DNA of 64,000 nucleotides from a bacterium. Lineage in GTDB: Bacteria > Bacillota_I > Bacilli_A > RFN20 > CAG-288. The translations under genes were made by a program, and so were the position numbers. Below the pieces are notes generated by a model. It did not search any database and was not told the origin of the DNA. It saw nothing but the letters and a program-made list of their open reading frames with translations. Location of the stretch: assembly GCA_963621825.1 (NCBI GenBank), contig CAVFFP010000005.1:7417-71416 (forward strand), written 5' to 3'. How positions within the stretch are numbered: position 1 is the first letter of the stretch; each line of letters begins with the position of its first letter. Shown here one piece after another: positions 58,803 through 64,000 of the stretch.

Positions 58803-59543
58803 ATGAAAAAAGAAATCAATTCTAAGTCGAGAAGAAAGTGGATCATGGGCGGTCTGGCAGCTTTCGCATCTGTCGCATTGCTCACCACTGGTTTTGCTGT
58901 CTGGATTGTTGGAGCCAACAACACTTCTGAAAACAAAGACGTCAGTGTCACAGTCGATACCGCAAAGAACGAAAGCATTAACTTCGTTTTGAATGTTGAA
59001 GCAAATCCGAGCATTGCTTTGAAGGAGTCTGCTGCTGTTTCTGGAGGAAAGATTGTCAATGTTGCTGAAGATGATGTTTCTGCTAATCCGTTACAGATTT
59101 CCTATTCTCAGTCTACTATCACTTATGGTTCTGGATATGATTTCAAGTTCACTTCCATCAAGTTCTCTATCGTTGAAGAAGAAGGATATGCAGCTGTTAA
59201 GACTGCAACGGGTGCTAGCAAATTGACAGGTGCTTATGCTCGTACTGGAACAGAATTCACATATTTGACTGCTCCTGAAACTATCAATATCTCCACATTA
59301 GAGAAAGTGAAGAGCACTACTGGAAACTCTACAACTATCACCCTTCCTGCTGGAACACTTGATTTCACTTGGGGAACTTTCTTCGACGCAAAGTCTCCGG
59401 CAAAATATTACAATGATAAATATGCTAATGAAACTGATCAGGTTGCATTAGGTAAAGCTGCTGATGAAATCACAACAGAACTTGATGCTATGTATGATCA
59501 GCTCAATGGCAAGAAGATCAAATTGCTTGCTGAATTAGCCTAA
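58803..59543 (+). CDS. Secreted or membrane-anchored protein with a SipW-cognate-like N-terminal signal (TasA/camelysin-style leader); mature domain unknown
   Basis: 246 aa beginning MKKEINSKSRRKWIMGGLAAFASVALLTTGFAVWIVGANNTSEN. The mature part is T/S/A-rich, with a C-terminal FTWGTFFDAKSP motif shared with the next ORF. Confidence 0.55.
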   Translation: MKKEINSKSRRKWIMGGLAAFASVALLTTGFAVWIVGANNTSENKDVSVTVDTAKNESINFVLNVEANPSIALKESAAVSGGKIVNVAEDDVSANPLQISYSQSTITYGSGYDFKFTSIKFSIVEEEGYAAVKTATGASKLTGAYARTGTEFTYLTAPETINISTLEKVKSTTGNSTTITLPAGTLDFTWGTFFDAKSPAKYYNDKYANETDQVALGKAADEITTELDAMYDQLNGKKIKLLAELA

Positions 59544-59558
59544 TCGGAGTTTGCAATC

Positions 59559-60329
59559 ATGAATAAATTCAATAAAGGCAGAACGATTGGAATCGTTGCT
59601 GCTTCCTTAGCTGCTGTTTCCTTGCTTGGTGTTGGTTTCTCTACATGGATTATCAACACGAAGTCTGGTCCTACTTCTGTAGGCAATATCTCTGTTTCAG
59701 TTGCAAATACACAGAATATTACCGTTACTATCAGCGATGCTAAGGTTGATGATGGCACGGTCAAATTTGATGCAGATCATAGTCAGCATACAGATTCCAG
59801 TATCTTAAGCTGCGGAAATTCTGATACAGAGGACCTTACCTTTTCTTTGAAATATAAAGTTACTGTCGGAACAGATGCATCTGCTTGGGAAATCAAAGCT
59901 GCAATTGATGATACTGCAGATGGTAAGTTCACAAGCGCTGTCTCTGCTAAGTATTTCACTTTACCTGATACATTAGGCATTAAAACAGATACTGACGATG
60001 GTGCTAAAACTTGCTTCAATCAGTCCAGTACAGATGGTTCTAATGGATTGTCCTTTGCTGATCCTACGACTACTGATGCTACAGCAAGTACAACTGGAAC
60101 AACCTCCAAAACGTATACAGTAACTCAGACCTTTACATTTGCCTGGGGAGAAGCCTTTGCTAAGAAAAACCCTGTTGCGGTAACCAAAGATGATAAAATC
60201 TGGACAGGAAGTGCAAGTGAAACTGCAAGTGACACGAATCTTCCTAAAAACACGACGGCGATGAAATCCTTAGGCTTATCCACTTTCAAGGTCATCCTCT
60301 CTGTCGGTACTGTTTCTACGGCCGCTTAA
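59559..60329 (+). CDS. Paralog of 58803..59543 with the same signal type
   Basis: 256 aa beginning MNKFNKGRTIGIVAASLAAVSLLGVGFSTWIINTKSGPT. The shared motif is FAWGEAFAKKNP. The start lies 15 nt after the previous stop. Confidence 0.55.
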   Translation: MNKFNKGRTIGIVAASLAAVSLLGVGFSTWIINTKSGPTSVGNISVSVANTQNITVTISDAKVDDGTVKFDADHSQHTDSSILSCGNSDTEDLTFSLKYKVTVGTDASAWEIKAAIDDTADGKFTSAVSAKYFTLPDTLGIKTDTDDGAKTCFNQSSTDGSNGLSFADPTTTDATASTTGTTSKTYTVTQTFTFAWGEAFAKKNPVAVTKDDKIWTGSASETASDTNLPKNTTAMKSLGLSTFKVILSVGTVSTAA

Positions 60330-60341
60330 TCATTATAAGGA

Positions 60342-61454: not shown

Positions 61455-61465
61455 GAGGTAGGAAG

Positions 61466-63298
61466 ATGCTCAAAACTCATTTTACGAGAAAGAACCTCAT
61501 CGCGATAGCTATGACGTTCTTCTATGGCCTTAGCGTCCTGATTGCGGGCCTTGCCATTGACGGTAACAATCCGTTCTTTGCAAAGAACAATCCGATTCAG
61601 AATATGGCTGCTGCCATGTTCCCGGTCAAGGATGTCAACGGAATCACAACCAAGGGAGTCCCCGCAGGTTCTGTTCCTGCCTATATCCTGCTTGTCCTCT
61701 TTGTGATTTACGTTGTCTTATGCACAGCGGCTATCATCTATGAGGTAAGACTTGCGAAGTATTACGATGAGAAACCCACTTCCACGAAATGGTGGATTGT
61801 CTATATCGCTACCTTCCTCATCTCTGGTGGATTATGGACAGGCATCTCCATGGTTTCTCAGATTTCTGATAAACCATATGGATATTACATTGCAAACTCC
61901 TATCTCTTCTTATTAGAGTCCATCGTCTTCGGATTCATTGTCTTTGTTGTCTTAGGTTCCATCATCTTCAATCTCTGCCTCCTTGTCGTCAACTTCAAGA
62001 ATATCAATAAGCCCTTCAAGTTCTTCAACAATGAAGGGGATGTCGAAAAAGAGGAGAAGGAAAAACTCTCCGAAGAGAAGAGAGCAGAAGAACAGGGTAA
62101 ACTTGCAGAATCCTTCGGTGAAACGAGTTCTACCGGAAACGGTTCTGTCGTTGCTGGCACTAGTGGAGTCAAGCCGTTAGATGACTCTTCTCCGTTAAAG
62201 GAGAAAGAGAGAGTCTTCCCAGGACTCTGCTCTATCGACTATGCCAATATGGCACTTCCTGTCGATCATTTCGAAGACGACTTATCCTTGAATGATATCT
62301 GTGTCCGCTTCCGCAATTACTTAGCCGATAAAGAAGGACTTTACTTCTCTCCTATCTATATTGAGGAGTTCATCGCTGGTCTTGCTGCTAGCCGCTTTAT
62401 CATCTTAGAGGGTCTATCCGGTACTGGTAAATCCTCTCTTGCCAGATATTTCTCTGAATTCATCTCGGAGAAATCCTACTTTGAAGCTGTTCAGGCCACC
62501 TGGAGAGATCGTACCTCTATCTTGGGTTATTACAATGATTTTTCTAAGACATACAATGAGACCGAATTCTTAAAGAGACTCTATGATGCCTCCTATAAGA
62601 AGAACCATGTCAATATCATGGTTTTGGATGAACTGAATATCTCCCGTGTTGAATACTACTTTGCTGACTTCCTCTCTGTCTTGGAATATCCACAAGAGGA
62701 CTGGAAGATCAAGATCATGCAGTTCCCGTATGACTTTGATGCTCCGGAACATTTAGGTGATGGTGTCCTTACTATTCCGAACAATACCTACTTCATCGGT
62801 ACTGCCAATAAGGATGAATCCACCTATACCATCACCGATAAGGTCTATGACCGTGCTATCACGATCGATTTCGATGATAGAAATGAACCCTTCAGCGTAG
62901 AGGGAGACAGTGAGAAGATCACACTCTCCTATCCGCGTTTACAGGAACTCTTTGAGGATGCGATCACCAAGGAAGAGAATCAGCTCTCCATGGAGGAATA
63001 CAAGAAGTTCAAGACTCTTACCGATTATACCTATGAGACCTTCGATATTACCTTCGGTAACCGTATCATGAGACAGATTCAGCTGTTTGTTCCTACCTTT
63101 GTCGCCTGTGGCGGAAGTAAGGAAGAGGCGTTAGACTTCATGTTCTCAAGAAAGGTTATCAGCAAGTTAGAGGGTAGATTTGAAGACTATGTCAAAGAGG
63201 GATTGATTGAGTTGAAGACATTGATTGTCAAGAATTACGGAGAGAACTCTTTCCCTCAGACGAATCATCTGATCGATAAACTCATCCGCAAACTGTAA
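61466..63298 (+). CDS. Membrane-anchored McrB-like AAA+ NTPase
   Basis: 610 aa. Residues 1-175 or so hold 4-5 TM helices, followed by an E/K-rich linker. Walker A is LEGLSGTGKSS and Walker B is IMVLDELNISRVEYYFADFLSVLE. FIGTANKDEST is also present. The RBS AGGAGGTAGGAAG lies 11 nt after the peptidase stop. Confidence 0.7.
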   Translation: MLKTHFTRKNLIAIAMTFFYGLSVLIAGLAIDGNNPFFAKNNPIQNMAAAMFPVKDVNGITTKGVPAGSVPAYILLVLFVIYVVLCTAAIIYEVRLAKYYDEKPTSTKWWIVYIATFLISGGLWTGISMVSQISDKPYGYYIANSYLFLLESIVFGFIVFVVLGSIIFNLCLLVVNFKNINKPFKFFNNEGDVEKEEKEKLSEEKRAEEQGKLAESFGETSSTGNGSVVAGTSGVKPLDDSSPLKEKERVFPGLCSIDYANMALPVDHFEDDLSLNDICVRFRNYLADKEGLYFSPIYIEEFIAGLAASRFIILEGLSGTGKSSLARYFSEFISEKSYFEAVQATWRDRTSILGYYNDFSKTYNETEFLKRLYDASYKKNHVNIMVLDELNISRVEYYFADFLSVLEYPQEDWKIKIMQFPYDFDAPEHLGDGVLTIPNNTYFIGTANKDESTYTITDKVYDRAITIDFDDRNEPFSVEGDSEKITLSYPRLQELFEDAITKEENQLSMEEYKKFKTLTDYTYETFDITFGNRIMRQIQLFVPTFVACGGSKEEALDFMFSRKVISKLEGRFEDYVKEGLIELKTLIVKNYGENSFPQTNHLIDKLIRKL

Positions 63299-63303
63299 AG
63301 GAT

Positions 63304-64000
63304 ATGACCGATAGCAAAGATTTCCTGATCAACTTCACCGATACTGTGAAAAAGGAGATAGGAAAAAGACCTATCGGTTTTTACCATGCTCTGGATTTGC
63401 TCGTCTATACAGAACCCTATCATTTTGATGAAGAGAAGAACCGATTAGAGGATCTTAAAACAGTTACTGATAAGATTCTCTCCATTCTTTATCATCCTGC
63501 TATCCATGCGACTACAAGTGAGATTGTACAGAGAAGTGAACTATCCGGAAAACTTTCCCACGATTCGTTCTCTGATACGATGCGAGATCCTAGACTTTGG
63601 AAAGAAAAAGGGGATAGCATGGTTCCGGAGTATGTCCATACTGTTGAGACGAGTGATAACATCGATATCTACGAGAATCGATTCCTCTCTCTTCTCATCC
63701 GTGAGCTGGATGAGGATATCTCCTCTACGATTGAGGATATGACTCCGATGGTGGAATCCTTAGGAGAACACTATCAGAGTAATCTCTTCACTTTCGGTAA
63801 GTATTCTCCTCTCCGTGATATGAGAAAGAGATACTATCCTTATTCTTCCTTTGTCCTAAAAGGAAACGGATCAAAGGAAGAACTCTATAGCAAGGCGAAG
63901 AAGTTAAAGAGAAGAATCCGGAATATGATGGGAAGTGAGTTCTACAAAATCACATCCAAGCATCCTATTTCAAAATCAGTCCGTCCTACCAATATCCTGA
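63304..64000 (+). CDS. McrC / DUF2357-like partner protein; only the N-terminal 232 aa are in the window
   Basis: Manual translation gives MTDSKDFLINFTDTVKKEIGKRPIGFYHALDLL...RDPRLWKEKGDSMVPEYVHTVETSDNIDIYENRFLSLLIRELDEDI..., open to the window end. The D-x-x-ENRF(L) motif is typical of McrC/DUF2357 N-terminal regions. The start lies 5 nt after the ATPase stop. Confidence 0.55.
   Translation, partial: MTDSKDFLINFTDTVKKEIGKRPIGFYHALDLLVYTEPYHFDEEKNRLEDLKTVTDKILSILYHPAIHATTSEIVQRSELSGKLSHDSFSDTMRDPRLWKEKGDSMVPEYVHTVETSDNIDIYENRFLSLLIRELDEDISSTIEDMTPMVESLGEHYQSNLFTFGKYSPLRDMRKRYYPYSSFVLKGNGSKEELYSKAKKLKRRIRNMMGSEFYKITSKHPISKSVRPTNIL

Follow-up and report, generated by a model that had tools for sequence, protein, structure and literature searches.

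A 64,000-nt stretch of DNA from the CAG-288 lineage of Bacilli (contig CAVFFP010000005.1 of GenBank assembly GCA_963621825.1, forward-strand positions 7,417 to 71,416; hereafter the window) ends in five closely spaced genes, O1 to O5, that join a secretion module to a relative of McrBC, a system known as a DNA-cutting restriction enzyme. O1 and O2 encode small proteins with a shared N-terminal signal, here termed S-subunits or S proteins; O3 encodes a signal peptidase of the SipW/Sec11 type; O4 encodes a McrB-like nucleoside triphosphatase (NTPase) with a transmembrane (TM) domain, termed TM-McrB; and O5, which runs off the window end, encodes a McrC-like protein with a DUF2357 region. Judged by gene order across relatives, the secretion module and the McrBC-like module are one functional unit and not chance neighbours.

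Gene layout and extent of the operon

The five genes lie on one strand (Table 1) with intergenic gaps of 15, 12, 11 and 5 nt (59543/59559, 60329/60342, 61454/61466 and 63298/63304), and the coordinates given in a preliminary description of this DNA were reproduced exactly. A Shine-Dalgarno-like GGAG or AGGA precedes every start codon. The same description had noticed no terminator hairpin between the genes, and our terminator scan likewise found none in the gaps, returning only weak plus-strand sites within genes (61781, 62424 and 63357). Upstream of O1 is a 485-nt non-coding region, beyond which the genes are on the opposite strand; because these neighbours are conserved in close relatives only, we place the start of the conserved block at O1.

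At its other end the unit continues past the window. Individual related loci retrieved for comparison are labelled here with L-numbers. In the close relative L097 the lipoprotein gene of the operon is followed by genes for 233- and 734-amino-acid proteins with an S-type signal, and then the coding strand switches. Read from this locus, the full operon has ~12-13 genes in ~16 kb, about three times what is visible in the window, which shows the first 5.2 kb.

Table 1. Features of the operon and its upstream flank, in window coordinates
Feature	Position	Strand	Remarks
O1, S-subunit 1	58803-59543	+	246 amino acids
O2, S-subunit 2	59559-60329	+	256 amino acids
O3, SipW/Sec11-type signal peptidase	60342-61454	+	370 amino acids
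O4, membrane-anchored McrB-like NTPase	61466-63298	+	610 amino acids
O5, 5′ part, McrC-like DUF2357 protein	63304-64000	+	232 of 460 codons; runs off window end
O1 signal motif G-F-A-V-W	58890-58904	+	after basic n-region and 17-residue h-region
O2 signal motif G-F-S-T-W	59634-59648	+	
O3 catalytic S112 (GSM box)	60675-60677	+	at least 95% conserved in 80 orthologs
O3 catalytic H166 (HR box)	60837-60839	+	at least 95% conserved in 80 orthologs
O3 catalytic D187 (GD box)	60900-60902	+	at least 95% conserved in 80 orthologs
O4 TM region	61490-62005	+	four hydrophobic segments, basic N-terminus
O4 Walker A, GLSGTGKSS	62411-62437	+	invariant
O4 Walker B, DE	62627-62632	+	invariant
O4 NxD motif, N448-K449-D450-E451	62807-62818	+	N-K-D-[D/E] invariant in family
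O5 YENRF	63670-63684	+	DUF2357 region
G9 homopolymer, candidate slipped-strand switch	58449-58457		in 485-nt region upstream of O1
Putative sigma-70-type promoter, TTGACT-N20-TATAAT	58717-58748	+	read from sequence; spacer mostly (AT)8, 58730-58745
Divergent gene, 287-amino-acid protein	57454-58317	-	upstream neighbour
Lipoprotein gene, 840 amino acids	54919-57441	-	upstream neighbour, outside conserved block

Conservation of the gene cluster

Gene order was compared in two samples, 85 loci anchored on O4 and 80 metagenome loci anchored independently on P800, an ~800-amino-acid protein encoded downstream of the permease in the conserved cluster; the total of 165 loci covers 45-99% identity to O4. 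The conserved order is S paralogs (two in the window, 1-7 elsewhere), peptidase, TM-McrB, O5, ATP-binding cassette (ABC) ATPase, 12-TM permease, P800 and lipoprotein, and further proteins with an S-type signal often follow the lipoprotein gene. As far as each contig reaches, this order is identical in all 85 O4-anchored loci and in 79 of the 80 anchored on P800, and O3 stands directly upstream of O4 in every informative locus. The exception, L098 (6096-16113), has the ABC ATPase, the 12-TM permease, P800 and a 1187-amino-acid Ser-rich lipoprotein, without S genes, peptidase, TM-McrB or O5.

The preliminary description had proposed one functional unit, with two unrelated, merely abutting modules as its fallback. 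We retain the proposal because synteny is strict in every informative locus of two independent samples: as far as the contigs reach, 164 of the 165 loci keep the order of S genes, peptidase and O4/O5 homologs, down to 45% identity, and with that invariant order the fallback becomes very improbable. That the arrangement reflects function rather than accident is argued further by its recurrence, since linkage of a peptidase, its substrate, a membrane McrB and a McrC-like protein is found again, in another gene order, in a related McrB clade (L086/L087, described below).

Full-length homologs of O4 number in the thousands in gut metagenomes, and when each species was represented by a single genome, at least 568 genomes proved to carry a relative. 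Among bacteria of human and animal guts, hundreds of species have the McrBC-like pair joined to this secretion operon, and the loci include no cultured representative. Genomes with O4 relatives are titled Bacilli, Mollicutes, Bacillales bacterium, Ca. Enteromonas, Ca. Onthovivens, Staphylococcus sp. CAG:324 and Acholeplasmatales, besides several other titles that evidently reflect mis-binning. Operon contigs at 45-90% O4 identity also bear titles such as Alistipes, Bacteroides uniformis, Prevotella, Lachnospiraceae and Oscillospiraceae (L006, L007, L009, L010, L011, L018, L041, L060, L069 and L081), which are probably binning or labelling errors in the source assemblies.

Downstream of O5, the permease matches Pfam ABC_tran_2/12TM_1 and the lipoprotein carries a Listeria-Bacteroides repeat. 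P800 has an N-terminal hydrophobic segment and no match in Pfam, NCBIfam or PDB, nor to any glycan-active family; an impression of beta-helix repeats in it found no support and was dropped. A metagenome scan with a large protein bearing the S-type signal found nothing, and succeeded when repeated with the P800 profile. The genes that flank the conserved cluster belong to sugar metabolism and housekeeping.

O4, a membrane-anchored McrB-like NTPase

The preliminary description of O4 as a McrB-style AAA+ core behind 4-5 TM helices is borne out. The core matches Pfam AAA_5, and the family profile aligns with E. coli McrB over 171 columns (hhalign probability 90.7%, E 1.3e-6). McrB was also the sole match of the O4 profile among PDB sequences, weakly (E 0.19-0.49); single-sequence PDB searches with O4 and O5 gave nothing useful. 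The core is under strong purifying selection. One of the four N-terminal hydrophobic segments is 40 residues long, and 4-5 TM is a fair description. Residues 1-180, the TM region, match no DNA-binding family in Pfam or NCBIfam, and O4 does not match FtsB/DivIC, showing only a short charged stretch at residues ~190-215.

The McrB-type signature motif of O4 is NxD. Bell et al. (eLife 2024, PMC11090510), in their census of McrBC systems, defined an NxD branch of McrB GTPases, in which NxD is usually followed by E or D. We searched the O4 AAA domain against 1.8 billion representative proteins and classed the 150 nearest relatives, ~140 of which show NxD; most others are fragments or lack the flanking search pattern. 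Three N-terminal classes are found among the 150: 4-5 TM (the O4 family), 1-2 TM with a short coiled-coil-like segment, and no TM with a long coiled coil (CoCoNuT-like). The 1-2-TM sister class gave no match to Pfam FtsB/DivIC.

To the 1-2-TM class belongs the locus L086/L087, which encodes a protein with a SipW/TasA-type signal (...TTATYAWFHD), a 1-2-TM NxD McrB whose AAA core is 42% identical to that of O4, a 274-amino-acid DUF2357 protein and a SipW-like peptidase, in an order that differs from that of O1 to O5. Another locus, L091 (4692-17482), has two paralogous 1-2-TM NxD McrB-like genes, each followed by a gene for a large protein (604 and 1141 amino acids) that the O5 profile does not detect, and flanked by genes for giant leucine-rich-repeat and other surface proteins (1670 and 2193 amino acids). 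Distant polytopic TM-McrB/O5 pairs in L088, L089 and L092 adjoin glycosyltransferase, Bac_transf, GH114, epimerase and capsule-synthesis genes, with no signal peptidase nearby; in one of these three, O5 is part of a 1158-amino-acid protein.

O5, a McrC-like partner with a degenerate nuclease

The full-length O5 of 460 amino acids was read from L001, a strain with a 99%-identical O4. Pfam DUF2357 is matched by 36 of 39 O5 family members (best E 1.7e-9), and Y123, E124, N125 and F127 of the Y-E-N-x-F motif are invariant in the family. For the fragment in the window the DUF2357 match has E 4e-5 and 23.4 bits, with a cut-off of 23.3. An AlphaFold2 model (mean predicted local distance difference test score, pLDDT, 82.7), in which the longest helix spans 27 residues (123-149), has the McrC chains 6hz4_M (E 1.5e-3) and then 6ut6_G as its top Foldseek matches. 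What ties O5 to McrC is the DUF2357 match, the Foldseek result and the position of its gene next to O4.

In the model the C-terminal half is predicted to be PD-(D/E)xK-like (strands within 302-344, helix 349-361, strand 365-370). Between residues 285 and 415, no Asp, Glu or Lys is invariant; D316 is kept in 34 of 39 members and the E/D-x-K positions vary. The family has no match to a nuclease family. O5 is therefore not a functional nuclease partner, the catalytic residues not being conserved, and is by these residue patterns a McrC-like partner with a degenerate nuclease. The earlier assignment of O5 to the McrC/DUF2357 partners stands at the level of DUF2357; the 'NTPase-nuclease' built on it does not, since the catalytic residues are lost. 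The protein ends in a CxxC...CxxC zinc ribbon, and an O5 profile search of PDB sequences returned zinc-ribbon look-alikes only.

O3, a dedicated signal peptidase

O3 matches the NCBIfam models TIGR02228 sigpep_I_arch (2.7e-12) and SipW (5.1e-12), in both cases below the curated equivalog cut-offs, and SEC11A/C among PDB sequences. The Ser, His and GDxN boxes reported earlier correspond to the three conserved catalytic residues of Table 1, by which O3 is a catalytically intact SipW/Sec11-type peptidase. Hydropathy and charge suggest the layout TM1, cytoplasmic loop, TM2, external catalytic domain, TM3 and a cytoplasmic tail of ~120 residues. The recorded gene call in the 99%-identical strain (L001, 9015) begins the peptidase 46 codons downstream, giving 324 amino acids and omitting window positions 60342-60479. 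We take the 370-residue reading as real because its N-terminal TM segment is kept at the protein level in L002, whose O4 is 55% identical.

O1 and O2, the S-subunits

O1 and O2 resemble each other only weakly in pairwise BLASTP (E 0.059, C-terminal motif only), so we compared profiles of their ortholog groups, which align over the full length (hhalign probability 100%, E 9.6e-42). By this comparison the two are paralogous, as had been proposed, and the GF-x-x-W signal ending and shared C-terminal motif of the preliminary description were both located. The latter reads F-x-W-G-x-x-F...P in both proteins; in O1, F188, W190, G191 and P199 are invariant across 68 homologs.

The signal consensus from 128 non-identical sequences has a K/R-rich n-region and a 17-residue h-region, then G (100%), F (95%), A or S (64 and 36%), any residue, W (100%), V/I and I/V. 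In the 64-kb window the G-F-[A/S]-x-W signal is confined to O1 and O2; elsewhere in the cluster, proteins of ~230 and of 600-1700 amino acids carry it too. Cleavage after G-F-[A/S] is compatible with the small residues at -3 and -1, and the invariant Trp would then sit at P2′. According to PMC10269814, TasA has Phe at P2′, is poorly cleaved by E. coli LepB and is processed in B. subtilis by the dedicated SipW. With its aromatic P2′ the S signal is like that of SipW substrates; the likeness is an analogy and not a test. TIGR04088, the model of the SipW-cognate signal, matched neither O1 nor O2 at E up to 1.

For O1 the AlphaFold2 model (pLDDT 84, and more than 90 over residues 50-246) shows a beta-rich fold and two helices towards the C-terminus. 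Residues 33-58, which hold a strongly conserved V-x-V-D-T-A-x-N, are unpacked in this monomer model, and it is conceivable that they act as a donor strand. The label 'TasA-like', given to the secretion module earlier, had to be abandoned: Pfam, NCBIfam, PDB profile search and Foldseek were all negative for O1/O2 despite the confident model. There is no match to Pfam Peptidase_M73, the profile search of PDB sequences returned neither TasA nor camelysin, and TasA lies outside the Foldseek top 50.

Poly-G tracts, the putative promoter and the upstream neighbours

The 2.7 Mb of related loci retrieved for comparison contain just 22 G/C runs of at least 8 nt, and all fall at two sites: 17 immediately precede the first S gene, in its promoter or leader, and 5 are in the opening ~40 codons of the S-like gene that follows the lipoprotein gene. 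The G9 of the window is the equivalent tract, counted separately. G tracts were noted in L013, L018, L047, L052, L056, L071, L079, L116 and L150-L163, and their length differs between near-identical sequences (G11 in L150, G8 in L160). In the S-like gene the tract comes just after the G-F-x-x-W signal, or before it in L050. This coding tract leaves the gene in frame in L001 (19276-19400) and out of frame in L006 (~11978-12212), L007 (~12020-12764) and L050 (~16220-16386), in what looks like ON and OFF states. Such slipped-strand switching is characteristic of structures exposed at the cell surface, and the clustering of poly-G tracts at the 5′ ends of S genes suggests phase variation.

The putative promoter upstream of O1 has a spacer of 20 nt, outside the 16-18 nt covered by the promoter scan, and its function is presumptive. 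L041 has (AT)10 at the position equivalent to the (AT)8 of the window; a change of repeat number would alter the length of the spacer. An Rfam scan of the operon 5′ region found no riboswitch.

The divergent 287-amino-acid protein encoded next upstream, possibly a local regulator, combines an N-terminal XRE-type helix-turn-helix and an acidic Glu/Lys-rich linker with TM helices at the C-terminus. Its gene adjoins the operon only in close relatives (L001 and L050). Beyond it lies the gene for another large surface protein, the 840-amino-acid lipoprotein (lipobox LFTSCG, Thr/Ser-rich linker), for which the source annotation gives a beta-propeller-type match (LRP1-like).

A proposed surface-structure machine and its rivals

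The explanation we favour, and would call evenly poised between right and wrong, is that the operon is an NTP-driven, phase-variable machine for a surface fibre or coat, a variant of the CoCoPALM class (see below) and not a restriction or defence system. S precursors would insert in the membrane through the h-region, and the dedicated peptidase would cleave after G-F-[A/S], leaving the invariant Trp at P2′, an aromatic residue like the one behind the dependence of TasA on SipW. TM-McrB would form a hexamer, as we presume, with O5 plugged into the cytoplasmic ring as in McrBC, and this pair would hydrolyse NTP to drive or gate a step in which processed subunits are extracted, exported or polymerised to give a fibre or coat on the cell surface. 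Minor or tip positions would fall to the larger proteins that bear the same signal, further parts of the envelope would be supplied by the ABC transporter, P800 and the lipoprotein, and poly-G slippage would switch expression. Of the two options offered in the preliminary description, a fibre-assembly machine with a co-opted McrB-like motor is the better fit; the other, an anti-phage system, is at odds with lineage-wide conservation and with an operon that has no effector.

A more ambitious version is possible, if rather doubtful. In it a McrBC GTPase was exapted into a membrane-embedded hexameric motor with a nuclease-dead McrC-like protein as its central shaft, which together with the SipW-type peptidase and the ABC transporter would build a phase-variable, pilus-like fibre of a new fold. 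This would be a new class of filament machine and the main appendage of an order-level lineage of uncultured gut Bacilli with small genomes.

Several observations weigh against the favoured explanation. The link of O5 to McrC is only moderate: the O5 protein in the window is at or below the Pfam DUF2357 cut-off, the Foldseek probability of the McrC match is 0.63 with poor TM-scores, and an hhalign comparison of the O5 profile with E. coli McrC was not significant. The O1 model matches no solved fold (best E 0.08 in Foldseek against PDB, and none in BFVD/viral models); the S fold is unlike any known pilin, TasA or fibre subunit, and polymerisation is therefore pure inference. To our knowledge no ATPase takes part in the assembly of TasA-type or archaeal donor-strand fibres, so that a motor is not obviously needed. 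L098 suggests that the operon's downstream half may be a module separable from the rest. Distant polytopic TM-McrB/O5 pairs keep the pair only, and stand beside glycan genes, not peptidases. The FtsB-like anchor and long coiled coils published for CoCoPALM are not evident in O4 or O5. Lastly, the hydrophobic stretch around the S signal motif, from -17 to +6, is 24 residues long and could be an uncleaved anchor, cleavage at G-F-[A/S] being proposed by analogy.

Such a stretch would suffice for a TM anchor, and on that footing the S proteins could make up a variable surface coat and not a filament: anchored by an uncleaved or lipid-embedded N-terminus, or released, they would form an antigenically variable layer whose insertion, turnover and quality control fall to TM-McrB/O5 and the ABC transporter. 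The variation in paralog number from 1 to 7, the putative poly-G phase variation, a fold unlike that of known fibre subunits and one source's annotation of an S homolog as 'predicted small integral membrane protein' would all suit this. We nevertheless think it unlikely, given that a dedicated and apparently catalytically intact SipW-type peptidase is always adjacent and that the motif agrees with a -3/-1 cleavage site followed by an aromatic P2′, like SipW substrates; moreover the occurrence of one signal on small, ~230-residue and very large proteins resembles a major, minor and tip arrangement.

It is less likely again that TM-McrB/O5 is a general motor for the secretion of exopolysaccharide or matrix, with the S proteins as matrix components. 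No glycosyltransferase or polysaccharide gene occurs within the conserved block in any of the 165 loci, and P800, the large extracytoplasmic protein that with the ABC transporter might suggest such export, matches no glycan-active family. The three sampled distant pairs that do adjoin glycan or capsule genes are among five outgroup contexts sampled, and the association may be chance.

An envelope-linked anti-phage or anti-plasmid system, with a surface sensor and a membrane McrBC-like executor, would be in keeping with the descent of O4 and O5 from McrBC and with the resemblance of the nearest soluble O4 relatives to CoCoNuT-type McrB, which belong to predicted defence systems. O4 also matches the PADLOC candidate PDC-M26A (1.3e-37). 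PADLOC-DB v2, run on all operon proteins, called no system, and apart from generic ABC similarity that was the only match, with nothing specific for O1-O3, O5 or the downstream proteins. The catalytic residues of O5 are not conserved and the operon has no other effector; the strict, seemingly vertical synteny in at least 568 species-level genomes is unlike patchy defence islands, and the neighbours are sugar-metabolism and housekeeping genes. We regard a defence role as very improbable.

That a secretion module, a McrBC relic and an ABC module are unrelated and merely abut, as the ABC-permease-P800 set of L098 without the upstream half and the retention of the McrB/O5 pair alone in distant lineages might suggest, is scarcely credible beside genes spaced only 5-15 nt apart, each with a Shine-Dalgarno site and with no terminator between them, an order invariant in 164 of 165 loci down to 45% identity, the recurrence of the peptidase-McrB-DUF2357 association in other order in a separate clade, and strong purifying selection on the O4 AAA core, which is hence no relic.

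Significance

In this lineage a McrBC-type NTPase ring and its partner have been kept under strong selection, with the DNA reader replaced by a membrane domain and the nuclease dead. If the operon is indeed an NTP-driven machine for a surface fibre or coat, an immune motor would have been recruited for envelope construction, a new way to build or export surface structures in monoderm bacteria. For CoCoPALM, so far a name, there would be a concrete model open to test, in which the substrates are defined, the cleavage site is predicted and phase variation acts as a switch. As likely surface antigens, exposed and variable, of an abundant gut lineage, the S proteins are relevant to host and phage interactions.

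Comparison with known systems

With type IV pili and type II secretion the operon shares an analogy only: a dedicated peptidase, paralogous small subunits with an N-terminal motif, a hexameric membrane NTPase and a polytopic partner. No component is homologous, the S motif follows the hydrophobic segment whereas theirs precedes it, and O3 is of the Ser/His SipW type in contrast to the aspartic prepilin peptidase. Closer in the secretion half are tapA-sipW-tasA of B. subtilis and calY/sipW of B. cereus, in which a dedicated ER/archaeal-type peptidase gene likewise lies beside its substrate genes and the substrates have a long h-region and an aromatic P2′. Unlike the substrates of tapA-sipW-tasA, O1 and O2 are not TasA or camelysin (no Peptidase_M73, TIGR04088 or structural match); O3 has an extra N-terminal TM segment and a cytoplasmic tail, and the TasA systems have no NTPase or ABC transporter.

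In the other half, E. coli K-12 McrBC has the same AAA+ core with Walker A, Walker B and Nx(x)D, followed by a DUF2357-type partner gene. O4 differs in having a TM domain in place of the DNA-reader domain and NxD, not NxxD, and O5 in lacking the PD-(D/E)xK catalytic residues. CoCoNuT (CnuB/CnuC) shares the NxD clade, with soluble long-coiled-coil relatives 43-48% identical to the O4 AAA core, and several CnuC types have inactivated PD-(D/E)xK domains and zinc ribbons (PMC11090510). O4, in contrast, is membrane-embedded and stands in a secretion context, in an operon with no evident long coiled coil and without HEPN or other nuclease, or RNA-binding domain.

The closest class is CoCoPALM. The preliminary description knew of no described system with this gene combination; the class had in fact been named by Bell et al. 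(2024, PMC11090510), who deferred its analysis to a later paper. In the literature we found no CoCoPALM follow-up, and no paper linking SipW with McrB besides the CoCoNuT paper (PMC11090510). Of the loci examined here, L086/L087 fits CoCoPALM, an identification that rests on the published description. Compared with that locus, O5 keeps a degenerate nuclease fold and a zinc ribbon where the L087 partner has 274 amino acids only, and the operon's substrates carry G-F-[A/S]-x-W, not a TIGR04088-like signal; an S1 profile aligned to the L087 substrate in the signal region only, and not significantly. With CoCoPALM as published the operon shares an NxD McrB-like GTPase with a membrane anchor, a DUF2357 partner and association with the signal-peptidase family. 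The anchor of O4 is a four-segment domain of ~180 residues, in CoCoPALM an FtsB-like TM segment with coiled coil, and the operon adds the ABC ATPase, the 12-TM permease, P800, the lipoprotein and further proteins with the same signal. Likened on the strength of that one-paragraph published description, the operon is best taken as a polytopic-membrane, much-extended variant of the CoCoPALM class, a class named but never characterised.

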